In this document: piece after piece, positions 3,332 to 19,203 of the stretch
Position numbering within the stretch: position 1 is the first letter of the stretch
How the letters are laid out: each line of letters begins with the position of its first letter
Assembly (NCBI GenBank): GCA_001822065.1
Contig: MHPJ01000010.1
Span: 1-41,333 of the forward strand
Reading direction: 5' to 3'
DNA: 41,333 nucleotides
Source of the DNA: Candidatus Staskawiczbacteria bacterium RIFOXYB1_FULL_37_44
Lineage (GTDB): Bacteria; Patescibacteriota; Minisyncoccia; Minisyncoccales; Staskawiczbacteraceae
The notes under the pieces: generated by a model
What the model saw: the letters and a program-made list of their open reading frames with translations, nothing else
Databases searched by the model: none
Told to the model about the DNA's origin: nothing
Made by a program: the position numbers and the translations under genes

Positions 3332-3595
3332 ATGGCAATCACAAAATCAGCTAAAAAAGCTATCAGGCAATCGGTCTCCAGAAAGGAGCATAACGTTGCC
3401 TATAAAAACAAAATAAAGGCTTTAGTAAAACAAGCTCGAGCTTTTGTTGCGGCAAAAAAAAACAGCGATGCAAAAAAACTTCTGCCAGATATTTATGCAG
3501 CGTTTGACAAGGCGGCCAAGGTTGGAATTATCAAAAAAAATAACGCTTCAAGACATAAATCAAGGTTAACAAAACTCATAGACAAAAAGATCTAA
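3332..3595 (+). CDS. rpsT: 30S ribosomal protein S20
   Basis: MAITKSAKKAIRQS...DKAAKVGIIKKNNASRHKSRL. Confidence 0.97.
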   Translation: MAITKSAKKAIRQSVSRKEHNVAYKNKIKALVKQARAFVAAKKNSDAKKLLPDIYAAFDKAAKVGIIKKNNASRHKSRLTKLIDKKI

Positions 3596-4504: not shown

Positions 4505-5370
4505 AGTTTTTGGCAGTGGGGACAAAAAAATGCCGAACGCTGGGCAACTTTGATTCGCTTTATTTTTGTTCCGCACTTGCGGCATTTTTGGTTTTCCCTT
4601 TTATAGGCTTTTCTTTCTGTATCAAAATCTCCTTTAGTGCCGTCCGGCTTTCTGTAATCAGAAAAGCTTTCTCCTCCCAATTTTACGCCTAATTCTAAAA
4701 CTTTTTTAATTGCTTTATATAAAGATTCTAATTCTTTTTCAGACAATTTTGCAACACTTTTTCCAGGATGTATTTTTGCATGCCACAAAGCCTCGCTGGC
4801 ATAAATATTTCCAACGCCCGCAATTACGCCTTGATCCATTATAATTTGCTTAATTTTTCCGTGTTTATCTTTTAAAACTTCTTTAAATTTATTTAAATTA
4901 AATTTTTTATCCAATGGCTCGGGTCCGATTTTTTTAAATTCTTTTTTTAAATTTTCTGTTTTCCATAATTCAACTTTTGCAAATTTTCTGGCGTCGGACA
5001 AGGCAAGCATCAATCCGTTGTCTAAAAAAAATATTAAATGCAAAAAACGGTTATACGGATCATTCAACGGCCCCTCTTTCACGGGCACCCACTTTTCACC
5101 TTCAGCTTTCCACTTTCCAACTAAAAAATGCCCTGTCATTTTCATGTGCACCAGCAAAGAATAATTTTCAGATAAGTCAAAAATAACATTTTTTGCCCTG
5201 CGCCAGATTTTTTTTATTTTTTTATTTTTTATTTCTTTTTTAAACAGTTTAAAATCTTTCGGTTTTTTTACAATTTTCTCCCAATCTGACCACACATCAA
5301 CAAAGGCCCGGCTAAGGACCTTTTTATTCAAACCGTTTACAGTTGTTTGCACTTCAGGCAATTCGGGCAT
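4501..5370 (-). CDS. mutM: Formamidopyrimidine-DNA glycosylase
   Basis: MPELPEV N-terminus, HMKMTG, GVGNIYASE and a C-terminal CxxC...CPHCQ zinc finger. Confidence 0.97.
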   Translation of the reverse strand: MPELPEVQTTVNGLNKKVLSRAFVDVWSDWEKIVKKPKDFKLFKKEIKNKKIKKIWRRAKNVIFDLSENYSLLVHMKMTGHFLVGKWKAEGEKWVPVKEGPLNDPYNRFLHLIFFLDNGLMLALSDARKFAKVELWKTENLKKEFKKIGPEPLDKKFNLNKFKEVLKDKHGKIKQIIMDQGVIAGVGNIYASEALWHAKIHPGKSVAKLSEKELESLYKAIKKVLELGVKLGGESFSDYRKPDGTKGDFDTERKAYKRENQKCRKCGTKIKRIKVAQRSAFFCPHCQKL

Positions 5371-5975
5371 TATATATTTTCTATATTATTTATATTTTTT
5401 TTATTTTTTGCTTTACCTGCTTTTTTCCTTAAATTTTCCAGCCCTTCCTTTAATTGGCGCGTTTCCAATTCCTTGTCTTTAGCTTTCGCGGAAAGCGCTT
5501 CTAACTGCCTTACCAATCTTTCCAGCTCTATAGTTCTGTTTTTTACTTTTTGTTCTAGAGCATTTATTATTACCTGCAAATCTTGCGTTTTGGCTTGCAC
5601 TTTTATGCCAACAAATTTTTCCGCATTCTCTTGCTGCTCGCGGCTTTTCTGCAATTCTTCGGCTATTTTATTAAAAACTTTTGCAAGCTCGGCAAATTCA
5701 TCTTTAGTTTCCAAGTAAACTCTGCTGGAAGAATTTCCCTTGCTTAATTCTGTTGCTTTTTCCAGTAATTCCTTTAAAGGAGAAACTAAATTTTGACCGC
5801 TTGCAAAACCAAAGAAAAAAACATAAATACCTAAAATTCCAATAACAATATAAAATCCTATGTCAAATTTATCAAAATTAAGGGCTGTAACATAACTTAA
5901 AGCCACAAATACAGATATGGCAAAAATGCCGGCTAAAATTATGGGAACTGCTATTTTAAATTTTAATTTTGCCAT
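5370..5975 (-). CDS. HAMP-domain membrane protein with C-terminal coiled coil
   Basis: Two TM helices, then PLKEL...DEFAELAKVFN (HAMP); no kinase or MCP domain visible. Confidence 0.75.
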   Translation of the reverse strand: MAKLKFKIAVPIILAGIFAISVFVALSYVTALNFDKFDIGFYIVIGILGIYVFFFGFASGQNLVSPLKELLEKATELSKGNSSSRVYLETKDEFAELAKVFNKIAEELQKSREQQENAEKFVGIKVQAKTQDLQVIINALEQKVKNRTIELERLVRQLEALSAKAKDKELETRQLKEGLENLRKKAGKAKNKKNINNIENI

Positions 5976-5990
5976 ATATAATCATAAATT

Positions 5991-6887
5991 TTATTTATGC
6001 GATAAAAGAGACAGGCGCTCAACTAATGAATTGAATTCTAAAGCGTATAATTTTTCTTCAACTTTTATTTTATCAAATTTTCCAAACTCGCAATCTTTCA
6101 AAACAAAATCTATTTTTACATCATTTTTCATTTCCACAAGTTCGCGTGACATAAGCGCGTTTTCTTTATTTTGTCTTAACGCTTCTTTTACCTTGGGCTT
6201 TAAAACAGCCGTGTCTGTTAAAAGTTCATCGTACAAATTTTCTATGCTGTTGTATTTTTGGATAATCTCTGCCGCTGTTTTTTTGCCGATTCCCGCAACG
6301 CCGGGAATATTATCTGAAGGGTCGCCAGTTAAAGCCTTAAAGTCATTCATCTGATCCGGCTTTACGCCAAACCTTTCTACTACTTTATTTATATCATAGA
6401 TTATCGTGTCTTTAATACCCTTTCCTAAAGTATAAATTTTTATTTTTTCATTTACCAGCTGCAAGCTGTCCATATCTCCGGTTAAAATAAATATCTCTAA
6501 ATTATTATTTTGTAAAAGCGCTAATTTAGAAATAGTCGCGATTAAATCATCTGCCTCAAAACCGTCTTTTGCAAAAACAGGAATTTTAAAAGCTTCTAAA
6601 ACTTCTTTTACAATTGGAATTTGGGTAACAATTCCTGAAGGAGTCAAAGGCCTTTGGGCTTTATAATCTAAAAATTTTTCGTGCCTGAAAGTTTTGGCTT
6701 TTGTGTCAAAAGTTGCGACAACATATTCCGGATTTAAATCTTTTATTGCTTTAAACAAAGTCAGCAAATACCCATAAACAGCTCCGGTTTCCTGTCCGTT
6801 TTTCATTGCCAGCGGAGGCAAGGCATGAAACGCCCGATGCAACAGCGCATTTGAGTCTATAATAATCAGTCTTTTTTTATCGTCCAT
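5991..6887 (-). CDS. Stand-alone 5'-3' exonuclease (PolA N-terminal/FEN domain)
   Basis: IIDSNALLHRAFHALP, EADDLIAT, TGDMD and GDPSDNIPGVAGIGKKTA (H3TH); no polymerase domain follows. Confidence 0.92.
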   Translation of the reverse strand: MDDKKRLIIIDSNALLHRAFHALPPLAMKNGQETGAVYGYLLTLFKAIKDLNPEYVVATFDTKAKTFRHEKFLDYKAQRPLTPSGIVTQIPIVKEVLEAFKIPVFAKDGFEADDLIATISKLALLQNNNLEIFILTGDMDSLQLVNEKIKIYTLGKGIKDTIIYDINKVVERFGVKPDQMNDFKALTGDPSDNIPGVAGIGKKTAAEIIQKYNSIENLYDELLTDTAVLKPKVKEALRQNKENALMSRELVEMKNDVKIDFVLKDCEFGKFDKIKVEEKLYALEFNSLVERLSLLSHK

Positions 6888-6898
6888 TATATATCATA

Positions 6899-7375
6899 TC
6901 ACGTTTTAATATTTATTTCTCTAGTTTTTTCATCGACAAATGTAAAATTTATTTTTATAAAATTTTTGGGCAGGTATTTTTTAATTTTTTCTGGCCATTC
7001 AATTGCCACAATATTTTCCGGGTTTGAAATTATTTCTTTAAAACCCAATTCTAAAATTTCCTCGGACTTATTTATTCTATAACAATCAAAATGAAAAAGC
7101 CTTTTATTCGTTAAAATTGACGACCGTCCATTTTTTGGAATACAAAATTTTCTGTAAATTATAAATGTGGGGCTTAAAATTTTTTCTTTTATGCCAAGCC
7201 CTTTCGCAAAGCCCTGCAAAAAAGTTGTTTTTCCTCCGCCTAAATTTCCATGTAGAGCAATAACAACAGCGGTTTTAGATTGCTTCGTCGCTACGCTCCT
7301 CGCAATGACGAGCGCGAAATCTTGACCAAGTTTTTGCGTTTGCTTATAATTTTTTGTTGTATATTTTTTTAGCAT
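6899..7375 (-). CDS. tsaE: t6A tRNA modification ATPase TsaE
   Basis: GNLGGGKTTF, SPTF, HFDCYRI and IEWPE motifs. Confidence 0.95.
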   Translation of the reverse strand: MLKKYTTKNYKQTQKLGQDFALVIARSVATKQSKTAVVIALHGNLGGGKTTFLQGFAKGLGIKEKILSPTFIIYRKFCIPKNGRSSILTNKRLFHFDCYRINKSEEILELGFKEIISNPENIVAIEWPEKIKKYLPKNFIKINFTFVDEKTREINIKT

Positions 7376-7459
7376 AACTTAAAAAATTTGACTTTAAAAA
7401 CAAATTCGTTTAGTGTGTAAAAATACCTGCCTCGCAGAATCAAGGCGGGAAGAAAAAAT

Positions 7460-8029
7460 ATGGAACTTCAAGAAGCAAAACAAATTATTACCGAGGCAAA
7501 AAATATTTATTTAATTCCCGAAGAAACTCCTGAAGCAATAACCTCTGTGCTAGCCCTTTTTTATACTTTAAAAGAAATGGGCAAAAATGTAAACCTGTTG
7601 CTGGAAAATTTGCCTGAAAATTTAAAATTTTTATCGCCATCTTTGGATTTTATTTCTTACCCGAAAAACTTTGTAATTTCGGTTCCAAACAATATCGCCA
7701 ATGTGTCTCAAATTTTTTACGAAAAAAACGACGAGGCTTTAAAAATACACTTAACTGTAGAAAATGGTAATATTAAAAAAGATAACATTGCGTTTTATTT
7801 TGCCGAAACAAAACCCGACCTTATTATAACCCTAGGAATAAAAGATTATACCGAACAATTAAAAGGCAGGCTGAATACTTTTGGATTTTTACTTGACTCG
7901 CCCATTTTAGATATTGACAGCACTCCGACGGGCTCAGTGCAAGAAAACAAAAAATTTGGTAAAATAAACTTACTGGAAGACAATCCTTTGTTTGAAATTA
8001 TTATGCGTTTAATAAACAATTTACATTAA
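7460..8029 (+). CDS. Degenerate DHH-phosphoesterase-like protein (N-terminal part only)
   Basis: AITSVLALFYTLKEMGK and PDLIITLG...PILDID resemble the DHH family, but the catalytic DHH is absent. Confidence 0.5.
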   Translation: MELQEAKQIITEAKNIYLIPEETPEAITSVLALFYTLKEMGKNVNLLLENLPENLKFLSPSLDFISYPKNFVISVPNNIANVSQIFYEKNDEALKIHLTVENGNIKKDNIAFYFAETKPDLIITLGIKDYTEQLKGRLNTFGFLLDSPILDIDSTPTGSVQENKKFGKINLLEDNPLFEIIMRLINNLH

Positions 8030-8031
8030 AT

Positions 8032-9243
8032 ATGGAAGACGTAAAAAAATTATTGGGATCGGTGGCAATTTCTCCAAAAATTATTGAAGAAACAGATAAG
8101 GGGGTAAAAGACATTGAAGGATTTAAAAATAAAATAGAAGAATATCTCTCCCAAAACGTTACTGAACTTTTAGATGTTATTTTATATGGAGCAATAGCGC
8201 TTGATACTTCAGACATCCACGTTGAGCCGGAGCAAGAAAAATCAAGACTAAGAATTAGATTGGACGGCATCCTGCAAGATGTTGTTTTTTTTGACCGAAA
8301 TATTTACCGCCATTTAATTTCCAGATTAAAGTTGCTTTCAAAATTAAAATTAAACATTACAGACAAGCCTCAAGACGGCAGGTTTACAATTGGCGTTAAA
8401 GATTTGTTAATTGAAATAAGAACTTCCAGCTTGCCGGCCGAATACGGCGAATCAATTGTAATGAGAATTCTAAATCCAAAAAGCTTGATCAGTTTGGAGG
8501 ACCTTGGCTTGCGCGAAGACTTGTATAAAATTTTTCAGAAAGAAATTGAAAAGCCAAATGGAATGATAATCGTTACCGGCCCCACGGGATCGGGAAAAAC
8601 AACCACGCTTTACGCATTTTTAAAAAAAATACAAAATCCTGAAATTAAAATTATCACAATTGAAGACCCAATTGAATATCATTTGGCGGGAGTTTCGCAA
8701 ACGCAAGTCGCTCCGGAAAAAGGCTATGATTTTTCAGACGGATTAAAAAGCATTGTACGGCAAGATCCCGATGTTATTCTGGTTGGAGAAATAAGGGACT
8801 TGGAAACCGCAAAAATAGCCCTGCAAGCGTCTTTAACCGGGCATCTGGTACTTAGCACTTTGCATACAAATGATGCGGCTGGGACCATCCCAAGGCTTGT
8901 GGACATTGGTACAGACGCTTCGTCAATTGCATCGGGGTTGAAAATGGCAATTGCCCAAAGATTGGTCAGAAAAATCTGCCCAAAATGCAAAGCCAAAAAA
9001 GGCGGCTGCGAATATTGCAATTTTACAGAATATAAAGGCAGAATGGGCTTATACGAAGTTCTCTTGGTTGACGCTGAAATGGAAAAATTTATTTTAACCA
9101 ATCCGCCGGTTTCTGAAATCAAAAAATTAGCCATACAAAAAGGCATGGTCACAATGTACCAATCTGGATTGCTGGCGGTAAAAGAAAAAAAGACAACATT
9201 GCAAGAAGTTAAACGCGTTGTGGAAGAAGACGAATCGCTTTAA
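8032..9243 (+). CDS. GspE/PilB family secretion/pilus ATPase (short N-terminus)
   Basis: SDIHVEP, PQDGRF, GPTGSGKTTTLY, TIEDPIEY, RQDPDVILVGEIRD and LSTLHTN. Confidence 0.95.
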   Translation: MEDVKKLLGSVAISPKIIEETDKGVKDIEGFKNKIEEYLSQNVTELLDVILYGAIALDTSDIHVEPEQEKSRLRIRLDGILQDVVFFDRNIYRHLISRLKLLSKLKLNITDKPQDGRFTIGVKDLLIEIRTSSLPAEYGESIVMRILNPKSLISLEDLGLREDLYKIFQKEIEKPNGMIIVTGPTGSGKTTTLYAFLKKIQNPEIKIITIEDPIEYHLAGVSQTQVAPEKGYDFSDGLKSIVRQDPDVILVGEIRDLETAKIALQASLTGHLVLSTLHTNDAAGTIPRLVDIGTDASSIASGLKMAIAQRLVRKICPKCKAKKGGCEYCNFTEYKGRMGLYEVLLVDAEMEKFILTNPPVSEIKKLAIQKGMVTMYQSGLLAVKEKKTTLQEVKRVVEEDESL

Positions 9244-9244
9244 C

Positions 9245-9403
9245 AAAAAAAACGGCTCTGGGGTTGGAGGTAGTTTTATTGTCTGGGACAATAAGAAAGA
9301 TTTTTTTGAGGAGCGGTCGAGCCGGAGCAAGACCGTCCGAAGCTGAAAAAAATCCAAATAAATACCTCCAACTCCAGAGCCGTTTCCGGTGTATTTTTCA
9401 ATA
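9245..9403 (-). ncRNA. Candidate rod-shaped sRNA of about 160 nt (6S-like architecture, family unassigned)
   Basis: 23-bp inverted repeat 9250-9272/9363-9385, inner stems, 8-bp side hairpin 9276-9294, U8 tail and an upstream consensus promoter. Confidence 0.6.
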
Positions 9404-9409
9404 TCTTTA

Positions 9410-9438
9410 ATATTAGCATTTTTTAAAGTATATGTCAA
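9410..9438 (-). promoter_or_regulatory. sigma70 promoter overlapping the ruvB start codon, driving the candidate sRNA
   Basis: Minus strand TTGACA-17nt-(TGc)TAATAT. Confidence 0.7.
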
Positions 9439-10445
9439 GAGTTTTAGACCAAAAACCCGCCAAAGAAGATGAAGCGCTAGATTCTGCTTTAAGACCTAAA
9501 ATTTGGGCTGATTACATTGGCCAAGAAAAAATTAAGGAAAATATAAGAATAATTTTAACTGCCGCAAAGCAAAGAGGTCAAAGTCCGGATCATTTGCTGT
9601 TTTATGGAAATTCAGGATTGGGAAAAACTACGCTGGCTCAACTGGTGGCTATGGAAATGGGTAAAGAAATAAAAATTTCATCAGGTCCGGCGATTGAACG
9701 CGCTGGCGATTTGGCTGCAATTTTGACAAATTTAAACGATGGCGATGTTTTGTTTTTAGATGAAATCCATCGCATCAGCAACACAGTTGAAGAATATTTA
9801 TACCCGGCAATGGAAGACTACAAACTAAATTTAATTTTGGGCAAAGGCCCGATGGCGCGAACAATGGAGTTAAAGCTGCCTAAATTTACTTTAATTGGAG
9901 CAACAACAAGGCCGGCGCTATTGTCTGCTCCGCTAAGAAACCGCTTTGGCGCCATTTTTCAGCTTGATTTTTATAAACCAGAAGATATTGAAAAAATAAT
10001 TGAAAGATCTGCTAGAATTTTGAATATACAAATAGAACCAGATGCCGTAAAAGCTGTTGCCGAACGTTCGCGCTTTACTCCTCGCGTTGCCAACCGGCTT
10101 TTAAAAAGGGCCAGAGATTTTGCCGAAGTCCAGTCGGACGGAAAAATTACAAAAGAAATATCAGCGAAGGCGCTGGAATCTTTAGATATAGATAAAATGG
10201 GTTTAGAACTCGGAGACAGAAAAATTTTGCTGGCGCTTATTGAAAAATTTGACGGAGGTCCGGTTGGGCTTCAAACCTTGTCGGCTGCTGCTATGGAAGA
10301 AGAAGACACAATTTTAGATATTTACGAACCGTATTTAATGCAAATGGGATTTATTGAGCGAACGCCCCGTGGCAGAATTGCCTCAAAAATGGCTTATGAA
10401 CACCTCGGCATAAAAATAAAAAACTCTCAAAGCCAATTAATTTAA
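9432..10445 (+). CDS. ruvB: Holliday junction branch migration helicase RuvB
   Basis: LRPK...YIGQ, GLGKTTLA, FLDEIHR, LYPAMED, FTLIGATT and IERTPRGR. Confidence 0.98.
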   Translation: MSRVLDQKPAKEDEALDSALRPKIWADYIGQEKIKENIRIILTAAKQRGQSPDHLLFYGNSGLGKTTLAQLVAMEMGKEIKISSGPAIERAGDLAAILTNLNDGDVLFLDEIHRISNTVEEYLYPAMEDYKLNLILGKGPMARTMELKLPKFTLIGATTRPALLSAPLRNRFGAIFQLDFYKPEDIEKIIERSARILNIQIEPDAVKAVAERSRFTPRVANRLLKRARDFAEVQSDGKITKEISAKALESLDIDKMGLELGDRKILLALIEKFDGGPVGLQTLSAAAMEEEDTILDIYEPYLMQMGFIERTPRGRIASKMAYEHLGIKIKNSQSQLI

Positions 10446-10456
10446 ATCTGGCTGTT

Positions 10457-10549
10457 GTCATTGCGAGGAGGCTCGCAAGCCGACGTGGCAATCTATAACT
10501 CTGGATTGCCACGCTCGTCGCCCAAAGGGCGAACTTCGCTTGCAATGAC
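10457..10549. repeat. REPIN/RPE-like bipartite palindrome, family B (GTCATTGCGAG...GCAATC / GATTGC...GCAATGAC)
   Basis: Terminal inverted repeats; full copies at 15401 and 28878, half copies at 7278 and 23529. Confidence 0.85.
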
Positions 10550-10554
10550 AATGC

Positions 10555-10599
10555 AAAAAAAACGCGCCCCTCATTTCGCTTTCGCGAAATTCGGGGCAC
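10555..10599 (-). terminator. Intrinsic terminator of the 10645-12195 gene
   Basis: GTGCCCC-GA-ATTTCGC-GAAA-GCGAAAT-GA-GGGGCGC followed by U8. Confidence 0.8.
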
Positions 10600-10644
10600 T
10601 TATTGTTTTACTCGCGAGAACTTTGTCCTCGCCTACTTGAACTT

Positions 10645-12195
10645 TCAGCCCATCCCGCCGCCATCGCCGGAGTAAATGCTCCAGCGGGTCTGATCAGCGT
10701 ACTGCTCGAAGATCTTGTCGGTCGCCAGAGCCGAGCCGTCGGGACGCTTGGCGCTGATGCCAGCATCTCCCGAAAGCTGCGCTCGCAAATATCCATACTG
10801 GATATCGTCGCGCGCATCGGCGCGAATCTCAAAGCTGTAAGTATTTCCTACGGGGCTGGTGAGCAAAAGGCCGTCAAAGACAACCTGCTCGTTCACCAAC
10901 TCGCCCGCCACCGAGCCGTCGAAAATGCCGTCGCTGTTGGTGTCCCAGTGCATCACATAATTAGTGAAACTGGACAGATCACCTTGGGTAGCCGTGATAG
11001 CCACATGGGTGATGTACATCAAGCTGGTACTGGAAGCCGTGAAGGCCTCCAAAACCAAATCCGGCGTTCCCGGCTCCACAGTCTGCCAGTTTGGCGAAGC
11101 GGTCGGGATCTCTTTGACCACCAGCTCGTGATCAGCGGACTTAAACGAGAACAGAGTGGCGACGTTGGTGTAAAGCCGAATTTGCGCTCCTGTGGCTGGC
11201 GCCGTGCCATTGACCATAGTGCCCTGCAAGGGCTTACCGGTTTCCGTGTTCACTGCGTTCAGCCCCGACGTATCGAAGGCCAATTGCAGATGGTCAGAAA
11301 CTGGCACGGCAACGATGTCGCCACGCACCTCGTATCGGCCGTCAGGCATGTCTGCATCGGCAAGATTAAAACTGAGCTTGCCGTTGGACACGGTTCCGGC
11401 GCTACAAACACTCACGTCGAAAACATCGTCCCAGTTGGTATCTGCCCACAAAGAGTAAGCCGCATCATCGAGATCACCCTGTTGAGCCGTAAAGCTCATG
11501 GTCTTGGGCTGAACCAATTCGGACTGCCAAGAATAAAACTTCAGCAGGCTGACGCCTTGCTGGTCAATTTCCACAGACCCGTACTTGTCGCCAGATTCTT
11601 GGCTGACGCTCCAGGACTGCGTGTCCATGGGTTGTAAAATGGGATCCACGCCGCCGTACCTGACGTTTTCAAACGGCAGATCCACACCCCGCAAATTGAC
11701 GCCCGAGACCAACGCGATGTCCAACCCAATGTCCTCGCCGGACAAATAAGAGTTAAACTTCGCATAAACCTCGATATGGAGCCCCTTTTTGGACAGCCAC
11801 ACCGGCCTGTAGACGTCTGTGCTAATGACGTCGTAATAGTCCGGCCTCGCGGATGCGAGATTGGCCTCACAGCCATCCTTGGACTTGCCGTTCAAATCGG
11901 CCATCACCACCACTTCGGTGATGTTGTACCGCAGTTCGGCGCTTCCAAAAGCTGGCAAGAAGTCAAACCCCGTGAGCCGAGCGCGATTGCGACCGGTCTT
12001 CAGAGTCATGTCCAACAGCTCCACTTTGGAAGCGCCGGGCAGAACGCCCGAAGCCAACAATGGGATCTTGTTGTTGATCACATCGATGAACGGCATGGGC
12101 GCAGGTCTTAATGTCCCGCTCCCGCCGCCGGCCAGCATTTGCCGAGGCTCCAACGACTCAACGCGCAACTTCCGGCTCGTCAAATTCCTACGCAT
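10645..12195 (-). CDS. GC-rich putative surface/S-layer-like protein with Planctomycete-type LEPRxLL N-terminal motif and three beta-rich repeats
   Basis: SD AAGGAG before ATG 12195; MRRNLTSRKLRVESLEPRQMLAG; repeats containing MADLNG, LWADTNWD and HWDTNSD. Confidence 0.75.
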   Translation of the reverse strand: MRRNLTSRKLRVESLEPRQMLAGGGSGTLRPAPMPFIDVINNKIPLLASGVLPGASKVELLDMTLKTGRNRARLTGFDFLPAFGSAELRYNITEVVVMADLNGKSKDGCEANLASARPDYYDVISTDVYRPVWLSKKGLHIEVYAKFNSYLSGEDIGLDIALVSGVNLRGVDLPFENVRYGGVDPILQPMDTQSWSVSQESGDKYGSVEIDQQGVSLLKFYSWQSELVQPKTMSFTAQQGDLDDAAYSLWADTNWDDVFDVSVCSAGTVSNGKLSFNLADADMPDGRYEVRGDIVAVPVSDHLQLAFDTSGLNAVNTETGKPLQGTMVNGTAPATGAQIRLYTNVATLFSFKSADHELVVKEIPTASPNWQTVEPGTPDLVLEAFTASSTSLMYITHVAITATQGDLSSFTNYVMHWDTNSDGIFDGSVAGELVNEQVVFDGLLLTSPVGNTYSFEIRADARDDIQYGYLRAQLSGDAGISAKRPDGSALATDKIFEQYADQTRWSIYSGDGGGMG

Positions 12196-12258
12196 CACAG
12201 CTCTCCTTAAATCAATGAACACTTTAACAAAAAAGAGGAACCATTCCTCTCTTTATTT

Positions 12259-12287
12259 ATCTTAGCATATTATTAAAACCTTGTCAA
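12259..12287 (-). promoter_or_regulatory. sigma70 promoter
   Basis: TTGACA-17nt-(TGc)TAAGAT followed by AAATAAAG and a leader hairpin. Confidence 0.8.
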
Positions 12288-12380
12288 CTCATTCGGCCTA
12301 CATAAAAAATCGCCTAAAAAGGTGATAAAAGTTTTAACTACAATTAGGGGTATACAAAATTTACGACTATTTTTAGTATG

Positions 12381-12451
12381 AGCGGGTGATGGGAATCGGA
12401 CCCACGTACTTTGATTGGCAACCAAATGCACTACCATTGTGCTACACCCGC
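12381..12451 (-). tRNA. tRNA-Gly(GCC)
   Basis: Cloverleaf GCGGGTG...CACCCGC-U; anticodon arm TTTGG-TTGCCAA-TCAAA. Confidence 0.93.
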
Positions 12452-12459
12452 AGTTCATG

Positions 12460-12531
12460 TGCCGGGGAAAGGAATCGGACCTTCGACCACTGCTTTTTCA
12501 GAGCAGTGCTCTACCACTGAGCTACCCCGGC
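12460..12531 (-). tRNA. tRNA-Phe(GAA)
   Basis: GCCGGGG...CCCCGGC-A; anticodon arm CTGCT-CTGAAAA-AGCAG. Confidence 0.95.
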
Positions 12532-13196
12532 ATATTAATTATGTTTTTATATATACCCTCTGTCCATCCTTTAATCTTCAAAAACAATTTAGTATTGCAT
12601 ACATAAATATCAAAAGTTCCGAAGGGTAAAGAATTTTTTTTGTTTTGGCTACTTATATTATGCTTTGAATATGTTTTATAAAATTGGCTTAACGGAATTT
12701 TAGAAACTGAGGACCAATAATTTTCAGCTTTTTTTATGTTAAGATGTGGGTGAATATGGATATGCCCTCTAAACTTTTTTTCTGGAACATAGCAGATTTT
12801 TCTCAAAAATTCCATCATAATTTCAATTATTTTGGGGTCGCCGTTTGCTATTCTAACTAATCCACGTTGTGTCTTGCCTCCCTCCGCCCAATATAAAGCA
12901 ATTCCTAAAATTTTTAAATCTTGTAAAGATAAATTATTTATCTCTTCTCTTGCTTTATCAATTATTATCTGTCTCCGATTATTTTCATTCTTAAATCTAG
13001 TCGCCCTTCTTTTTTCTATTATTTCCTTTTTAACGCCCTTGTTAGATAATTCTTGTTTTTGATCTTTTGTAAGCTCTATATTTTTTACCCATAAACTGAT
13101 ACTACTTTTGGAAACTCCCAATTCTTTTTTAATTTCGTTCATTGACCAGCCTTGTTTTCTTAAACTGATAGCCAAATTTTTTTCTTTTAGTTTCAT
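12522..13196 (-). CDS. HTH + LAGLIDADG-like protein inside a tRNA cluster
   Basis: N-terminal HTH (GWSMNEIKKELGVSKSSISLW), LGIALYWAEGGK helix and NGDPKIIE; stop codon inside tRNA-Phe. Confidence 0.7.
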   Translation of the reverse strand: MKLKEKNLAISLRKQGWSMNEIKKELGVSKSSISLWVKNIELTKDQKQELSNKGVKKEIIEKRRATRFKNENNRRQIIIDKAREEINNLSLQDLKILGIALYWAEGGKTQRGLVRIANGDPKIIEIMMEFLRKICYVPEKKFRGHIHIHPHLNIKKAENYWSSVSKIPLSQFYKTYSKHNISSQNKKNSLPFGTFDIYVCNTKLFLKIKGWTEGIYKNIINMPG

Positions 13197-13257
13197 AATT
13201 AAACCCGTTAGTTGTTTGTTATATCTATTATAGCATAACGGTCTAATTATGGAAATG

Positions 13258-13329
13258 TGAACGGCATAGGATTCGAACCTATAACCTCCGCGATGTAAAC
13301 GCGATGCTCTGCCGTTGAGCTAGCCGTCC
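13258..13329 (-). tRNA. tRNA-Val(TAC)
   Basis: GGACGGC...GCCGTTC-A; anticodon loop TTTACAT; GGTTCGAATCC T-arm. Confidence 0.95.
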
Positions 13330-13337
13330 TTGTCTTG

Positions 13338-13356
13338 CACTGAGCTTGTCGAAGTG
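13338..13356. repeat. Short REP-like element (CACTGAGCTTGTCGAAGTG)
   Basis: Relatives at 7921-7939 (inverted) and 37921-37940. Confidence 0.7.
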
Positions 13357-13437
13357 TGCGCGAGAGAGGAGTCGAACCTCCACGCCTTTCGGCACCAGCT
13401 CCTTAGGCTGGCGTGTATGCCATTTCACCACTCGCGC
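13357..13437 (-). tRNA. tRNA-Leu(AAG)
   Basis: GCGCGAG...CTCGCGC-A, long variable arm, anticodon arm CCAGC-CTAAGGA-GCTGG. Confidence 0.9.
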
Positions 13438-13440
13438 AAT

Positions 13441-13905
13441 TTATTTTTTCTCCCGCCCCTCTGAGGCGGCTGGCGCGCCTGCTGTTGATTCCTCAACTGG
13501 CTCCCGCCCTTCTGGGACGAGGCTCGCCTCTTCAGAGGCGGCGGGCGCAATTGCAACTGCAAAATCTCTTTTCTTTAATTTTGCTTTTTTCCCTTTGGCT
13601 GTTCTTAAATAATAAAGTTTTGATCTTCTGGCCTTTGCGCTTCTTATAATTTCAAATTTTTCCACAGACGGCGAATGGATTGGGAAAACCCTTTCAACTC
13701 CTACGCTGTCAACAACTTTACGCACAGTTATTGTGGCTGAAATTCCTTTGCCGTGCTTTTTGGCAATAATTATGCCTTCAAAAATCTGAATTCTTTCTTT
13801 GTCGCCTTCTTTTATTTTTTGGTGTACTTTAATTGTATCTCCCGGCCTTAAGTCTGGTATTTTTCTTTCTTGCTCTTTATTAAATTTTTCAAGTAATGTT
13901 GTCAT
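13441..13905 (-). CDS. rplS: 50S ribosomal protein L19 with repeat-derived C-terminal tail
   Basis: [29 protein letters not shown] and RRSKLYYLR. Confidence 0.97.
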
Positions 13906-13963
13906 CTAAATGAATTTTAAATTTTAAGTTTTAAATTTTAAATATTTTGGTTTGAATTAAAAT

Positions 13964-14716
13964 TTATAATTTATTATTTAAAATTTTAAGTGCTTGTTTT
14001 AATTCTTCCGGCAGTTCTGACAAAAATTCTTTTGTCTCTCCGCCTAATAATTGGATTTTTAAGTATTTTGCGTGCAGGAATTGTCTTGTCAGGCCTTCTG
14101 GTATTTTTGAATTTTTAAAGCCATACATTTTATCTCCTGCAATTGGATGTTTTAAATAAGCTAAATGGCACCGTATTTGGTGCCTGCGGCCTGTTTTTAT
14201 TTTGACTTCAAGTAATGTAAATTCACTTGAGGTCATCCCGCGAAGCCTTGGCGAAGTGGGACTTTTATATCTGTCGATGACTCTATATTCGGTAATTGCT
14301 TCCCTGGCAGATTTGGCCTGCCTGCCGGCAGGCAGGGAGCGTAACGCCACTTGTTTTCTAAAATCTTTTTTAGATCGGGCAATTAAAGTTTTAATTTCTC
14401 CAGAGTCATTTTCCATAACTCCCTCTGCCAAACAAACATATTTCTTTTCTACCTCTCTACTTATAAACTGTTTTTGCAGAAAAATCAAGCTTTCATTTGT
14501 TTTTGCCACCAGTAAAACTCCCGAAGTGTCTTTGTCTAACCTGTGAACAATTCCATATCTCGGGGGAGACCCGATGTCCCCCAAATTCGGCTTTTGCTCT
14601 ATTAAGGCGTCGATTAGCGTATTTTCTGTTGTTTTTCCTTCGGGAAACACAACCATTCCCGCTGGCTTGTCCACCGCCAGCACATCATTATCTTCGTAAA
14701 TTATTTTTATTTCCAT
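13964..14716 (-). CDS. RluA/RluD family pseudouridine synthase (no S4 domain)
   Basis: VDKPAGMVV, HRLDKDTSG, TGRRHQIRCH, HPIAGD and RQFLHA. Confidence 0.93.
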   Translation of the reverse strand: MEIKIIYEDNDVLAVDKPAGMVVFPEGKTTENTLIDALIEQKPNLGDIGSPPRYGIVHRLDKDTSGVLLVAKTNESLIFLQKQFISREVEKKYVCLAEGVMENDSGEIKTLIARSKKDFRKQVALRSLPAGRQAKSAREAITEYRVIDRYKSPTSPRLRGMTSSEFTLLEVKIKTGRRHQIRCHLAYLKHPIAGDKMYGFKNSKIPEGLTRQFLHAKYLKIQLLGGETKEFLSELPEELKQALKILNNKL

Positions 14717-14721
14717 TTGTT

Positions 14722-14934
14722 TTAGGCTTCTTCCCACTCGTTAATTGAAATACCGGCTTGTTTTAAAATTTCAGAAACAAGATGCCTTGAAATATCTCCG
14801 CGATGAGGATTTGGAATATGAACTTTTAATTCTCCCTTCACCATAAATAAATGACGACCACCCGAAAAGGGGCCATCAAATCCAAGCCTTTGGAATTTTT
14901 GCACAAATTTACGCCAGGAAATATTTTTAGGCAT
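14722..14934 (-). CDS. hicA: HicA family toxin
   Basis: 70 aa; LGF...GGRHLFM..VHIPNPH...EILKQAGI; overlaps the upstream antitoxin. Confidence 0.85.
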   Translation of the reverse strand: MPKNISWRKFVQKFQRLGFDGPFSGGRHLFMVKGELKVHIPNPHRGDISRHLVSEILKQAGISINEWEEA

Positions 14935-15160
14935 GGCGGTTGCCAATTTTCATTAAAAAGCCGGGTATTTTTTCTTTTGCCTGAATTTTTAAAATAAACC
15001 AATCTTCTAAAACTTCTTTCAACTCTTGTCTGCAGTCTTCCAAGTTTTTTGCATTAGACCAAACCCCGCGAAGTCCTGCTATTTCACCAAAATAACTTCC
15101 ATTCTCCAAAATTTTATATCGCGCTGTTTTTAATTTTTTCTTTATAAATTCTCCAAACAT
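14927..15160 (-). CDS. hicB: HicB family antitoxin (short, no C-terminal DNA-binding domain)
   Basis: YFGEIAGLRGVWSNAKNLEDCRQELKEVLEDW...IP. Confidence 0.85.
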   Translation of the reverse strand: MFGEFIKKKLKTARYKILENGSYFGEIAGLRGVWSNAKNLEDCRQELKEVLEDWFILKIQAKEKIPGFLMKIGNRHA

Positions 15161-15221
15161 ATTTTTAGTATTTATGACTTTAAATTATCACATTTTTATC
15201 ATAAAAACAACATTAAGCTTG

Positions 15222-15295
15222 TGGGCGGTATAGGACTCGAACCTATAACATCGAAAACGTCAATTTCGCGCTCTACCAAATTGAGCTAACCGCCC
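15222..15295 (-). tRNA. tRNA-Val(GAC)
   Basis: GGGCGGT...ACCGCCC-A; anticodon arm CGAAA-TTGACGT-TTTCG. Confidence 0.93.
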
Positions 15296-15321
15296 TCATT
15301 ATTTTAAAATTTTTAATTTTG

Positions 15322-15393
15322 TGGTCCTGGCAGGGATCGAACCTGCGACGGCCGTCTTATAAGGGCGGTGCTCTGCCACTGAGCTACAGGACC
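15322..15393 (-). tRNA. tRNA-Ile(TAT)
   Basis: GGTCCTG...CAGGACC-A; anticodon arm CCGCC-CTTATAA-GACGG (one C-A mismatch). Confidence 0.88.
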
Positions 15394-15400
15394 GAGTCTA

Positions 15401-15490
15401 GTCATTGCGAGGAACGAAGTGACGAAGCAATCCAGAGTGAAATTCACATACTATAGATTGCCGCGTCGCCTGCGGGCTCCTCGCAATGAC
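15401..15490. repeat. Family B bipartite palindrome
   Basis: GTCATTGCGAGGA...AAGCAATCCAGAG...ATAGATTGC...CTCCTCGCAATGAC. Confidence 0.85.
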
Positions 15491-15500
15491 GATTTGCAAA

Positions 15501-17327
15501 TTATTTTGACTTAATTAGTTTTTCAAATTCTTCGCGCTCTATAATTTCTTTTTCTATCAAATCTTTGGCAACTTTGTCCAGCAATGCGCGGCGCTTTAAC
15601 AAAATTTGTTCTGCATTTTTTTGGGCTCCCTTTATTATTACATCAACTTCTTCGTCAATTCTTTCGGCAATTTTTTCAGAATAATTTCTTTGTTCGGAAA
15701 TTTCTTTTCCCAAAAACACCAGTTCTTCTTTTTCGCCAAAAGCAATCAAGCCCAATGAAGACATACCAAATTCTTTTACCATCCTTCTTGCCAAGTCCGA
15801 AGCTCTTTGTAAGTCATTTGAAGCGCCGGTTGTCATTTCGCCAAATTTTATTTTTTCAGCCGAGCATCCGCCAAGCAAAGTGGCAATTTCAGAAATAAAT
15901 CCGGTTTTTGTTTTCATTTTTCTTTCTTCGCTTGGCACTTGCAAAGTGTAGCCGGCGGCCATTCCTCTGGCAATTATGGAAATTTTTCTAACAGGTTCTG
16001 TTTCAGGCGAAAATGTGGAAACTAAAGCATGTCCTGCTTCATGGAAGGCTGCAATTTCTTTTTCTTTTTTAGATAAAATGTGCGACTTTCTTTCTGGGCC
16101 CAGCAAAACTTTTTCAATTGCTTCCAAAAAATCTTTTTGGTGAATTTCTGTTTTATTTTGTCTGGCAGCCAGTAAAGCTCCTTCATTTGCCACATTTGCC
16201 AAATCTGCTCCGGAAAAACCCGGAGTTCTTTCGGCAACTTCTTTAAAATTGACGCCTTTTGCCAAAGGTTTTGTTTTTGAATGGATTTCTAAAATTTCTT
16301 CTCGGTCGTGGACATCCGGCGGATCTAAAACAATTTTTCTGTCAAATCTTCCCGGCCTTAATAAAGCCGGGTCTAAAATGTCCGGCCTGTTTGTGGCAGC
16401 TAAAATAATCACGCCGGTTTCTTTTTCAAAGCCGTCCATTTCAACCAAAATTTGGTTTAAAGTTTGTTCTCTTTCATCGTGTCCGCCTCCAATGCCGGCT
16501 CCTCTGTGGCGTCCAATAGCGTCAAGTTCGTCAATAAAAACAATTGACGGCGAAGATTTTTTTGCCATTGAAAATAAATCGCGAACGCGAGCTGAACCCA
16601 CTCCTACAAACATTTCCACAAATTCAGATCCTGAAATTGATAAAAACGGCACATTGGCTTCACCTGCCACTGCTCTTGCCAACAAAGTTTTTCCAACTCC
16701 GGCTCCTCCAACCAGCAAAACGCCGCGTGGAATTTTTGCTCCCATTGCCAAATATTTTTTTGGAAATTTTAAAAAGTCTACAATTTCAACCAATTCTTCT
16801 TTGGCCTCTTTCAGGCCGGCTACGTCTTTGAAAGTAATTTTTTCTTTGCCATGTCCCTCGGCTCCAAAAATTCTGGCTTTGGCTTTTGTAAAATCAAATG
16901 CCTGCATTGCTCCTGTTTTTGCCTGTCGGAACATAAACCAAAATATCAATCCAAAAAATACCAAAGGCAAAATCCCAAAAACCAGAAGCGGAGTTGCCCA
17001 AGACCAAAAATCCTGTTTGACAGGCTGTACGTCCACTTGCACTTTTTGCAAAGCATCTTTATTTACTCCCAAATTTGCCAGCAAATCAGTTACGCTGGTG
17101 TTTTCTTCTTTCATTGAGGTTACGGTTTTATTGTCATTATATGTAATTTCAAGAGTTGTTCCTGCAACAGTAACCTTTTTTACTTTGTTCGCGTTTATGT
17201 CGCTAACCAATTGCGTGGCAGAAATTTCATTTGGAGTTACCGCCGGAAAATAAAGCGCGCTGAAAATTCCTGTAATTACAATTAGGATTAAAACTACTAA
17301 TATAAAATTTTTTATAAGTGGATTCAT
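15501..17327 (-). CDS. ftsH: ATP-dependent zinc metalloprotease FtsH
   Basis: Two TMs, Walker A GVGKTLLA, FIDELDA, ALLRPGRFDR and HEAGH. Confidence 0.98.
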   Translation of the reverse strand: MNPLIKNFILVVLILIVITGIFSALYFPAVTPNEISATQLVSDINANKVKKVTVAGTTLEITYNDNKTVTSMKEENTSVTDLLANLGVNKDALQKVQVDVQPVKQDFWSWATPLLVFGILPLVFFGLIFWFMFRQAKTGAMQAFDFTKAKARIFGAEGHGKEKITFKDVAGLKEAKEELVEIVDFLKFPKKYLAMGAKIPRGVLLVGGAGVGKTLLARAVAGEANVPFLSISGSEFVEMFVGVGSARVRDLFSMAKKSSPSIVFIDELDAIGRHRGAGIGGGHDEREQTLNQILVEMDGFEKETGVIILAATNRPDILDPALLRPGRFDRKIVLDPPDVHDREEILEIHSKTKPLAKGVNFKEVAERTPGFSGADLANVANEGALLAARQNKTEIHQKDFLEAIEKVLLGPERKSHILSKKEKEIAAFHEAGHALVSTFSPETEPVRKISIIARGMAAGYTLQVPSEERKMKTKTGFISEIATLLGGCSAEKIKFGEMTTGASNDLQRASDLARRMVKEFGMSSLGLIAFGEKEELVFLGKEISEQRNYSEKIAERIDEEVDVIIKGAQKNAEQILLKRRALLDKVAKDLIEKEIIEREEFEKLIKSK

Positions 17328-17379
17328 GTGTATATATTTAATATGCTAAATTTAACATAAAATTAAAAATTATTCAATG

Positions 17380-17414
17380 AAAAAGCCGAAGGGTTGTTTT
17401 GCAACACCTCCGGC
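17380..17414 (-). terminator. Intrinsic terminator of the 17437-18735 gene
   Basis: GCCGGAGG-T-GTTG-CAAAA-CAAC-CCTTCGGC followed by U5. Confidence 0.75.
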
Positions 17415-17436
17415 AGACTATGACTTTGCGGCAATA

Positions 17437-18735
17437 TCAGCCTCGAGTCTTATTTTTTTCTTGCTTTGCGCGAACCATGCGGAAAACTGTCCGCAAGAAA
17501 TTCTTGCATTGGACAGGTTTCATATCAAGGAAGGCTTCACCGGGATTGTGGAACTGCCCGACTGCTTTGTCGTACAACTTAGCAGCCTTCGGGCTTTTTG
17601 AAACAACTTCCACAAGACCGATATGACCGTCTGACCTGCGCGCGAAGCGCAAAGTTAGATTCTTGATGGTGACTCCCTCATCAGGATTATTTGGTGGAGC
17701 CCATTTAAACTCCTCCTCGCAAATTAAGGTGGCCATGCCGACAGCGCCTTTCAAAAACTCCCACGGCTCAAGCTCTCGGTTTTCCTTCTCGAAAATCGCC
17801 GAGAATCCGCGTTTGAGCGCGGCGCCGAGTTGTTCGGTCTTCCTTTGCCAGTTTTCCAGTTTTTCACCGGACAACTGTGGCGGCGGGATAATCCTAAGTC
17901 CGTCGCAGACTTTTCCGTCGTCAGCCTTAATCGCCGACAACAGAATTGTTGCGTTTCCGAGCTCGGCAAGTCCGTTTTTGTGGCCGGTAATTCCGGTCAC
18001 AATCAGAACTTGCTTGTCGATTCCGTTTAGTTGGCTTTCCAGTTCGAAAGTCGCCTTGTTGTCGATTCCAAGTTGGAACTTTCCGAGTTTTCCAGCCCAA
18101 GCTTCCTGTGGAATGATTTCTTCGTCGGAAGTCCGGGGTTTGGGCGGGGCAGTCACGGTAGCGAGTTTTTCTGCAGACCGTGTTTCCACGGCGTGCAATT
18201 GCTCGCCGCGCAACCTGCCCACAAGCTGCAGAATCTCGGTTTTGTCTTCGGGTTTGAGCCCAAAACCTTCTGCCGTAACTTGAAAGGTTGGCGACAGGTA
18301 TTTCTCCTGTGCCGCCCAGACAAGTATGTCCACTGCTTCTTGCTCATTTATTTCTCGTTTCATTTTGAAACGAATGTTTGCAAGGTGCGCGGCACGCCGG
18401 AGGGCAAACGCCGAATTCTCCATGAGCTTGGCGATGCCGAGCTTGAACCGCGAAATAACGTCGGCCCAGGTAAGCTCCGGAATATCCGAGGGGTTGTCGA
18501 GTCCTGCTTCGATTTTCTCGGTCTCGGCCAGAAACTCGAACACCAGCGGCAGAACGACTGCCAGCAGGTACTCGGCGTGCTCAGCAATTTTGCCGGCGGC
18601 CGCCTGCACAGCCTTGATGGCCTCCATCGCCGAGCGTTTCTTTTCGCTCGGCTCCATACGCGAGGGGTCTTTCTCAATGGCCTCGAGTAGTTCGGTGATG
18701 GACAGTTCAACCTGGGTGTCAATGGTTTTTTCCAT
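17437..18735 (-). CDS. GC-rich hypothetical cytoplasmic protein (432 aa)
   Basis: Long ORF with GC-ending codons, SD GAAGGA, own promoter and terminator; no recognised domain. Confidence 0.75.
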   Translation of the reverse strand: MEKTIDTQVELSITELLEAIEKDPSRMEPSEKKRSAMEAIKAVQAAAGKIAEHAEYLLAVVLPLVFEFLAETEKIEAGLDNPSDIPELTWADVISRFKLGIAKLMENSAFALRRAAHLANIRFKMKREINEQEAVDILVWAAQEKYLSPTFQVTAEGFGLKPEDKTEILQLVGRLRGEQLHAVETRSAEKLATVTAPPKPRTSDEEIIPQEAWAGKLGKFQLGIDNKATFELESQLNGIDKQVLIVTGITGHKNGLAELGNATILLSAIKADDGKVCDGLRIIPPPQLSGEKLENWQRKTEQLGAALKRGFSAIFEKENRELEPWEFLKGAVGMATLICEEEFKWAPPNNPDEGVTIKNLTLRFARRSDGHIGLVEVVSKSPKAAKLYDKAVGQFHNPGEAFLDMKPVQCKNFLRTVFRMVRAKQEKNKTRG

Positions 18736-18813: not shown

Positions 18814-18842
18814 ATTATAGCATTTTAGGAAGTCGTTGTCAA
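18814..18842 (-). promoter_or_regulatory. Perfect-consensus sigma70 promoter
   Basis: TTGACA-17nt-(TGc)TATAAT followed by AAATAAAG. Confidence 0.88.
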
Positions 18843-18854
18843 GACCTTGACCTC

Positions 18855-18882
18855 TTGACAATTAGATTGTATTTGCTATACT
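18855..18882 (+). promoter_or_regulatory. sigma70 promoter of csrA (divergent from the previous promoter)
   Basis: TTGACA-16nt-(TGc)TATACT. Confidence 0.8.
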
Positions 18883-18961
18883 TAAATCAGCTCATTAGAT
18901 GCCCTGGCTTGGAGGCTTGGGGAGCGATCCGGTTTTTCATCCTGAACAGGAGGGATTTGCA

Positions 18962-19141
18962 ATGTTGGTACTTTCCCGAAAGAAGAACGAGAGTATTGTC
19001 ATCAATGATGACATCACAATCGTTGTCGTTGAAATCCGGGGCGACAAAGTGCGCCTTGGTATTGAAGCGCCCAAAGAAGTTCCGGTGCATCGGCGAGAGG
19101 TTTTCGACGCCATCCGTCGCAACGATGCGACGGTCAAGTAG
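18962..19141 (+). CDS. csrA: Carbon storage regulator CsrA
   Basis: MLVLSRKKNESIVI...KVRLGIEAPKEVPVHRREV; SD CAGGAGG upstream. Confidence 0.96.
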   Translation: MLVLSRKKNESIVINDDITIVVVEIRGDKVRLGIEAPKEVPVHRREVFDAIRRNDATVK

Positions 19142-19171
19142 GCTATGCAAATGCCCGGCAGATAGTATTTT

Positions 19172-19203
19172 AGCAGGAAGCTTCGGCGACCTGCTCTTTT
19201 TTT
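19172..19203 (+). terminator. Intrinsic terminator of csrA
   Basis: AGCAGG-AA-GC-TTCG-GC-GA-CCTGCT followed by C and U7. Confidence 0.8.

Follow-up and report, generated by a model that had tools for sequence, protein, structure and literature searches.

CsrA is the textbook regulator that acts by masking the Shine-Dalgarno (SD) site, and the csrA gene of E. coli carries GGA sites in its own leader, including the ribosome-binding site. The csrA gene considered here, together with its signals, occupies positions 18855-19203 of what we call the window, that is, the whole 41,333-nt stretch of contig MHPJ01000010.1 of Candidatus Staskawiczbacteria bacterium RIFOXYB1_FULL_37_44, a groundwater bacterium with a tiny genome from the Candidate Phyla Radiation (CPR). 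Its product belongs to the same family as CsrA, RsmA and RsmE (E. coli, 1Y00; P. fluorescens RsmE, 2JPP), with residues 1-53 aligned and the RNA-contacting ends conserved, and its leader resembles that of E. coli csrA in also having GGA, including at the ribosome site. The setting is different. The host has no anti-SD and its core genes have no SD, so that SD masking finds no pairing to compete against; csrA has a foreign base composition; and no sponge RNA of the CsrB/RsmZ type is seen either in the window, where Rfam identifies only tRNAs, or in three GGA-dense loci, where it identifies nothing.

The second described system is the FliW-CsrA-flagellin switch of B. subtilis, Geobacillus and Campylobacter. 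The window CsrA aligns with the Geobacillus CsrA of 5DMB (1e-13). However, the source genome (G000; 0.84 Mb in 26 contigs, of which the window is contig 10), 100% complete by markers, has no match to FliW (PF02623) or flagellin (PF00669) at E≤0.1. The allele class discussed here, which we call type A, is a conserved GC-rich class of csrA alleles with ...KKNESIVINDDITIVVVEIRGDKVRLG.EAPKEVPVHRREVFDAI... in the product. At 73 planctomycete type A loci the gene stands alone, none of the 137 same-strand neighbouring open reading frames (ORFs) being fliW, and FliW is encoded elsewhere in three of the five such genomes searched.

Copies of csrA also travel on mobile elements. Paralogues borne by integrative conjugative elements (ICEs) occur in Legionella, Vibrio phages in GenBank have an annotated CsrA-like regulator (50% identity), and the window CsrA matches PHROG 9500, 'CsrA-like regulator', at 8e-21. 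Type A is likewise cargo of mobile elements, found in phage replication modules. Unlike these copies, the gene described here is fixed in a chromosomal housekeeping slot, in 13 species and without other mobile genes, and it has no resident csrA to supplement, the source genome containing a single csrA match.

We consider it moderately probable that the locus is a horizontally acquired, self-contained and autoregulated csrA cassette with few targets. For now, the case amounts to an ordinary regulator that was cleanly transferred. What lifts it above the routine is the anti-SD-less setting, the carriage of type A by phages, the unameliorated codons, and the near match of one congener allele, that of G011, to planctomycete DNA. 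An intact CsrA kept under strong selection where there is neither SD nor anti-SD is a natural test case for CsrA action without competition. The cassette is, moreover, a sharp marker of gene flow among CPR bacteria, Planctomycetes and phages, which could aid the search for partners of these uncultured bacteria.

The csrA cassette and its chromosomal slot

The csrA promoter (18855-18882, plus strand) consists of the -35 box TTGACA (18855-18860), a 16-nt spacer with an extended TG, and the -10 box TATACT (18877-18882). It scores 11 of 12 consensus matches in the promoter scan, which finds seven promoter-like sites in the 2.1-kb region against 2.3 ± 1.3 in shuffled sequences, and TTGAC-N16-19-TAnnnT precedes 12 of the 14 csrA cassettes of the genus. 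The leader, with its 5' end placed from the -10 box, spans about 18889-18961 on the same strand (some 73 nt) and contains TTGGAGG (18909-18915), GGGGAG (18919-18924) and CAGGAGGGA (18947-18955). Its four GGA triplets start at 18911, 18921, 18949 and 18953, the last two lying 7-13 nt ahead of the ATG; shuffles have 1.48 on average, P(≥4)=0.033. The coding sequence (CDS), 18962-19141 on the plus strand, encodes 59 amino acids, from the ATG at 18962 to the TAG stop at 19139-19141. It is followed by an intrinsic terminator (19172-19203, plus strand) with the stem AGCAGG (19172-19177) / CCTGCT (19190-19195), which encloses an inner GC-UUCG-GC with a UUCG tetraloop, and a run of seven T (19197-19203). 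The terminator is absent from the output of the pattern scan because its loop exceeds 8 nt; congeners have a comparable hairpin and T-run 3' of csrA. The stretch 18855-19203 is a complete, monocistronic, self-contained csrA unit. The original prediction had described an intact 59-aa CsrA with its own promoter and terminator, a GGA-rich leader and GC-rich codons, and all of these features hold: the ORF boundaries are unchanged, and the GC content at third codon positions (GC3) is 0.57 in the csrA core versus 0.25 in the neighbouring tatD.

The protein is a clear member of its family. It matches the Pfam CsrA profile (PF02599) at 1.2e-26 and 92.8 bits (cut-off 27) over profile positions 1-52 of 53, and both NCBIfam csrA equivalogs, NF002469 at 85.9 bits (cut-off 73) and TIGR00202 at 82.7 bits (cut-off 70.1). 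Residues 1-53 align to solved CsrA/RsmE chains at about 1e-14 (3e-14), and the MLVLSR start and APKEVPVHRRE match them column for column, with R7 replaced by K. The RNA-contacting residues of strands beta-1 and beta-5 we take to be L2, L4, R6, V40, V42 and R44 in E. coli numbering; these positions are conserved in the 59-aa CsrA, including L2, L4, R6 and R44. All 59 residues make up the CsrA fold, the N-terminus being the beta-1 strand, and comparison with the solved chains reveals no signal peptide and no additional domain. The C-terminal extension found in congeners (63-89 aa in total length) and in the listed planctomycete chromosomal forms (70-82 aa) is absent from the window protein; viral forms have 56-66 aa. 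Members of this family form interleaved homodimers that recognise GGA in hairpin loops. Judged by family membership, the 59-aa protein would most likely form such an ordinary dimer, with GGA motifs in RNA as its binding sites.

Within the mechanism we propose, autoregulation has the best support, although it still has to be put conditionally. An SD-like motif of the GGAG type is found at positions -16 to -5 in 13 of the 14 csrA cassettes of the genus, and the leader hairpin that follows the transcription start is conserved, with compensatory changes in five of seven pairs and a loop that often contains GGA. CsrA would most likely repress its own translation via the GGA sites of the leader.

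Within the genus, csrA is present in 13 of 26 species genomes, while none turned up in a first draw that covered 16 genomes of the order's other families. Seven congener loci include both flanks, and there csrA forms a GC-rich blip of 200-400 nt in low-GC surroundings, preceded by metG and followed by tatD and then leuS. At an eighth locus, at a contig end, csrA is immediately downstream of metG. In four congeners without csrA, the end of metG is separated from tatD by 3-5 nt. The source genome itself departs somewhat from this order: metG is at 1835-3277 of the window, 15.6 kb from csrA, and FtsH and a 432-aa gene are upstream of csrA instead. The segment between metG and csrA (3566-18735, with ruvB, tRNAs, rplS, ftsH and two GC islands) resembles a rearrangement and is common to L324, a metagenome contig from another place, where the order is FtsH, an ORFan 53% identical to the 432-aa gene, csrA, tatD and leuS.

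GC content rises from about 37% to 52% at both edges of the island at 17.4-19.2 kb. Such a step might be produced by chimeric assembly, or by contaminating planctomycete DNA that was assigned to a CPR bin. Only read runs that may have been the source of the assembly bridge the left junction (17346-17459); X12, a run not marked as a source, leaves it uncovered, which we regard as a gap in coverage and give no further meaning. We regard an artefact as extremely improbable, though. The same cassette occupies the same place, with low-GC flanks, in the assemblies of 12 other species, and CPR housekeeping genes stand on both sides of the island within one contig. In the possible source runs X1 and X5 a single contig spans 16800-19800 with zero differences. 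In X12, a 1049-nt contig bridges 18345-19393, from csrA into tatD, with even depth across the island, and in X13, also not marked as a source, a 497-nt contig bridges 18902-19398. Given the slot shared across species, the bridging contigs and the same gene order in L324, a chimera is very unlikely, and the possibility that the gene lies on misassembled sequence, raised at the outset, can be set aside.

Relatives of the cassette and possible routes of transfer

Among the relatives found in sequence searches, the best 120 of 8000 scored were 90-100% identical to the window CsrA, and the few named ones were assigned to Planctomycetia, Pirellulales or Planctomycetota. The nearest named cellular relatives are from Planctomycetia/Pirellulales, with 92-97% identity. 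The titles of the best 80 genome loci refer to planctomycetes in 73 cases and to CPR bacteria in five (Peribacteraceae, Peregrinibacteria, Peribacteria, Patescibacteria group, Nealsonbacteria), the remaining two reading only 'bacterium'. On the other hand, an even draw from Planctomycetota (401 genomes) contains 132 with a CsrA-like match, and only three places in it are at least 85% identical; type A differs from general planctomycete CsrA. The original description of the protein as planctomycete-like is therefore right about its nearest named cellular relatives, but too narrow for the class as a whole, since the same class occurs in CPR metagenome-assembled genomes and in 268 IMG/VR stretches.

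In CPR, csrA is patchy, yet not rare. Above the cut-off it is found in 38 of 401 genomes of a sample of the phylum (Patescibacteria) and in 18 of 301 genomes of a sample of the order, chiefly in two families, where 8 of 12 and 6 of 11 genomes have it. The frequency of type A in the Patescibacteria sample is about that in the even Planctomycetota sample. CPR bacteria have at least three csrA sequence types; two sister species, G007 and G013, have one of them, type B (65-69% amino acid identity), at the same metG/tatD junction. Full-text searches of the literature gave no account of a planctomycete-type csrA in CPR. According to PMC9938205, csrA is one of the genes that are highly expressed in ultra-small prokaryotes of groundwater.

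Phages constitute the third group of carriers. Relatives are encoded in 268 of the 316 IMG/VR stretches matched, the best at 93-96% identity. In phage contigs of 28-55 kb, type A is situated between queuosine-type DNA-modification genes and genes for a clamp and a DNA polymerase; in others of this size range it is beside exonuclease/Sak4/HNH genes. The conserved module seen in the IMG/VR contigs L328, L329 and L337 comprises QueC/QueE/GTP cyclohydrolase/transglycosylase, a D5-like regulator, csrA, a sliding clamp and DNA polymerase.

It is possible, if rather less than probable, that the cassette began as a phage gene (a moron) which was then domesticated, and did not come straight from a planctomycete chromosome. 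The viral relatives, the PHROG 9500 match and the place of type A in phage replication modules all point that way, and so does length, the 59-aa window protein resembling the viral forms more than the planctomycete ones. However, no phage gene adjoins the cassette in the window, and neither of the two ORFans of the GC islands matches PHROG. The best viral nucleotide identity to the genus is 0.85, no closer than that of planctomycete csrA.

Upstream of planctomycete type A genes GGA is also enriched, at 3.19 per 100 nt versus 1.51, and all 72 of 72 have AAGGAA where the ribosome would bind; this too speaks for autoregulation. The similarity between the window and planctomycete DNA is confined to the CDS and about 12 nt before it.

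The distribution of csrA is patchy, its composition is foreign, and its nearest relatives are in another phylum; all three are marks of horizontal transfer. As to the age of the cassette, type A congeners have 93-100% amino acid identity in the CsrA core versus 60-76% in TatD, while synonymous changes at third positions have reached saturation in csrA and tatD alike (mean identity 0.47 and 0.53). The near identity of the CsrA core despite divergent TatD and saturated third positions therefore means very strong purifying selection. GC3 of csrA is 0.50-0.76 in the 14 cassettes of the genus, where the flanks have a GC content of 0.32-0.45. The correlation of csrA and tatD distances was rejected as a test of vertical descent, both genes being saturated and the correlation not significant (Spearman 0.09-0.31).

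The history that we favour would run as follows. The type A CDS class is common to Pirellulales-like Planctomycetes, phages and several CPR lineages. A cassette carrying it would have been inserted at the metG/tatD junction within the CPR genus. Its sigma-70 consensus promoter, its leader with GGA and its terminator would have been acquired there or have come along with it, and it has been maintained since then under very strong purifying selection. Our own reading is that the cassette was inserted once or a few times, long ago, and that its CDS was later replaced at least once.

Several observations weigh against this history, in particular against a single old insertion. Half of the genus lives without csrA. 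GC3 of about 0.6 after synonymous saturation is unexpected for a long-resident neutral import. Type A is equally frequent in the Patescibacteria and Planctomycetota samples and is phage-borne as well. The tree, built on 162 nt, is mostly unsupported (10 of 120 branches starred), has the genus's type A genes, 12 in number, scattered among planctomycete genes, and settles neither the donor nor the direction or route of transfer. The approximately unbiased (AU) test rejects one clade of these 12 genes (p=0.02), a result weakened because of saturation and shared codon bias. The TatD tree needs four changes to account for the csrA-bearing species; for these a single clade is not demonstrated, but the AU test does not reject it either (p=0.105). 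The G011 allele of csrA shares 91% of its nucleotides with planctomycete alleles. Finally, with respect to autoregulation, the leader of the window csrA folds no better than shuffles (z 0.85), and the energy of the consensus leader hairpin is small, -2.85 kcal/mol.

The G011 allele deserves attention. The match covers 234 nt, including the variable C-terminal tail, and the planctomycete genomes concerned have 7.4 and 11.1 Mb and GC content 0.66-0.67; identity to any congener does not exceed 85%, and the gene occupies the same slot. One reading of this allele is that the csrA slot of the genus has been repeatedly overwritten by alleles of Planctomycetes or their phages, so that the CDS is always 'young', while the promoter, the leader and the position are old. 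Such recurrent replacement, a refinement of the favoured history and not exclusive of it, is plausible but, in our judgement, falls short of being probable. It would explain why GC3 of csrA never falls. It is also consistent with the partial matches of G014 and G018, in the tail or upstream, to other planctomycete alleles, with the AU test, and with the divergent type B in the same slot of G007 and G013. Yet a full-length near match exists for only one of the 12 type A genes of the genus. For the tails of the other congeners, comparison with 73 planctomycete loci and 80 viral ones gave no match, and when the tailed protein of G008 was searched against the 401 Planctomycetota, residues 1-60 were matched and the tail was not. 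Moreover, the 162-nt tree can mislead through shared codon bias and saturation, and no recombination mechanism is evident because the homology to the donor ends at the borders of the CDS.

The near identity to planctomycete CsrA, retained over long divergence, and the signs of ongoing gene flow with Planctomycetes in the G011 allele also speak for a different proposal, made in the original prediction, that CsrA is a host-manipulating effector; in that case it would be delivered into a planctomycete host, where it would mimic the host's own CsrA. This we consider very improbable. The N-terminus is the beta-1 strand of CsrA and not a signal peptide, the CsrA fold takes up all 59 residues with no further domain, and no delivery system is linked to csrA. 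CsrA is slow-evolving in general, and the leader architecture suits regulation inside the bacterium's own cell.

Translation context and candidate targets

The favoured description, a transferred cassette with few targets, has to be seen against the way this genus starts translation. The 16S rRNA 3' end of the source genome (C4:64630-64670) reads GGAUCA-U7-8-A5 in place of CCUCCUUA and lacks CCUCC. The same end, with no anti-SD, is present in all 14 genomes of the genus whose 3' end was recovered, whether or not they have csrA. For one subgroup of Parcubacteria, anti-SD loss is already described in the literature (PMC9297842). At 438 unambiguous ATG starts, GGAG, GAGG and AGGA occur between -20 and -4 in 2.3, 2.5 and 3.2% of cases versus 4.1, 2.1 and 3.2% in a control window, and no G peak is seen ahead of these starts. 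The core genes lack SD, as had been claimed from the sequence. GGA is found in 10.5% of core leaders compared to 15.1% in the control window, and A makes up 50-60% of the 10 nt that precede start codons. One idea is that pairing of the A-rich leader with the U-rich 16S tail would substitute for SD pairing. The 16S rRNA gene of the source genome is, in addition, interrupted by about 1 kb (C4:65233-66271) at model positions 873/874; such interruptions are common in CPR.

Since there is no anti-SD and the core leaders are A-rich and GGA-poor, CsrA cannot act in this genus by competing with pairing of the SD and the anti-SD. It would instead cover the initiation region, or alter the stability, of a few GGA-bearing transcripts. 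GC-rich accessory genes led by GGAG are candidate targets, but they are not CsrA-dependent.

These genes form a distinct minority. In the source genome, 32 of 689 ORFs (about 5%) have GC3 of at least 0.47, and 13 of 20 GC3-rich ORFs lack a Pfam family. They have their own consensus promoters, GGAG ahead of the start, and terminators, and the ribosome cannot pair with the GGAG. The orthologues of the 432-aa gene (53, 39 and 27% identity) stay GC-rich and GGAG-led, always in low-GC CPR flanks, and the same holds for an orthologue (50% identity) of a sigma-like GC-rich gene. Orthologues of this sigma-like cassette were sought in species without csrA as a test of leader conservation, but only G018 has one.

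One of two alternatives in the original prediction has CsrA selectively silence the SD-bearing cassettes, which would make it a dedicated repressor of the GC-rich accessory genes. At first sight the association is strong: GGAG, GAGG or AGGA is found 4-18 nt before the start in 27 of the 32 GC3-rich ORFs and in 139 of the 657 others (p=2e-13), while control windows upstream of the same genes have it in 7 of 96 cases. A silencing CsrA would be selective by default because the core leaders are GGA-poor, and the cassette at C4:35479-35889, with seven GGA in its leader and a hairpin presenting AGGAAAGGAG, looks like a suitable target. We counted the GGAG-led class in four genomes, which as kin are not independent. 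The csrA-bearing G014 has the motif in 12 of 16 GC3-rich ORFs and in 120 of 510 others. However, G041, which lacks csrA, is 100% complete and has metG abutting tatD, shows the same gene class and the same motif, in 34 of 50 GC3-rich ORFs and in 149 of 586 others; hence the motif exists without CsrA. In G005, also without csrA, the counts are 7 of 28 and 98 of 589. Further, CsrA dimers prefer paired sites, and of these there is no sign in the cassette leaders, because they contain 1.75 GGA per 69 nt versus 1.69 in the coding sequence of the same genes. Selective silencing, in the form proposed, is thus supported by neither comparison; the reading has lost its main support and seems to us unlikely, though CsrA could still bind cassette leaders where present.

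A broader scheme, which we think more unlikely still, would combine several of these elements: the genus would associate physically with Planctomycetes of the Pirellulales/Thermoguttaceae type or share phages with them, its csrA slot would be repeatedly overwritten by their alleles and the gene thereby stay GC-rich and almost identical to theirs, and the GGAG 'SD' motifs, of no more use for initiation once the anti-SD was lost, would have become operators through which CsrA gates GC-rich mobile accessory genes, that is, an RNA-level xenogeneic silencing.

Apart from csrA itself, the most promising single place for a CsrA site is the GGA-dense, species-specific unit at C4:35479-35889 (minus strand; equal to L415:480-890). 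It has a TTGACA promoter, a U8 terminator and a possible ORF of 63-80 aa, and the seven GGA of its leader include those of a 9-bp hairpin. The GGA-densest non-ORF window of the source genome, C4:35701-35820, with nine GGA, is the leader and the start of this gene. It was rejected as a sponge RNA, as it has no Rfam match and is part of a small gene with its own promoter and terminator. As for the hairpin, only a 36-nt piece recurs, in G008, and the fold is no better than in shuffles (z 0.64).

Neighbouring GC-rich genes and minor observations

The 432-aa gene next to csrA is restricted to the lineage. It occupies 17437-18735 on the minus strand, has GC3 of 0.59 and AAGGA 8 nt ahead of the ATG, and is preceded by a divergent promoter (18814-18842, minus strand; TTGACA-17-TATAAT, 12 of 12 matches) situated back to back with that of csrA at a distance of 13 nt. 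The two genes together constitute the 52% GC island in the 37% GC genome. The 432-aa protein belongs to no Pfam, NCBIfam or PHROG family, and its AF2 model (pLDDT 68.7) has no fold match in the PDB at E≤0.001. Among 5.8e9 proteins it has two homologues; homologues of the gene are located elsewhere in G011 and G014.

The second GC island (55% GC) contains a 525-aa gene (10645-12222, minus strand) beside tRNA-Gly and tRNA-Phe. The N-terminus of its product matches the 'Planctomycete extracellular' motif PF07595 at 29.6 bits (cut-off 25.5), and the protein has three homologues without names among the same 5.8e9 proteins. Its structural neighbours in the Atlas are clusters of CPR surface proteins (TM <0.5), so that they give no evidence of a planctomycete origin for the other GC-rich genes.

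Two paralogous GC-rich cassettes are found at C26:13425-14278 and C26:15521-16222. Their leaders start with TGGCTCATTGAAAAT and have GGA...cagGGAcagctgtt before the GGAG motif of the ribosome site; the proteins are unrelated-looking coiled-coil or membrane ORFans. As a leader motif shared by the cassettes, TGGCTCATTGAAAAT was discarded: with up to three mismatches it yields 53 matches versus 39-48 in shuffles, and it is exact only in these two paralogues. A GC-rich hairpin without an Rfam match is present in two copies only (C7:1911 and C16:4893), with the loop GGAGG(A)GGGGTCTGGGGAGGAAT, also written GGAGG...GGGGAGGA. Lastly, the window contains a tRNA-Ile with the anticodon UAU (15321-15393, minus strand), adjoining tRNA-Val(GAC), an unusual means of reading AUA.

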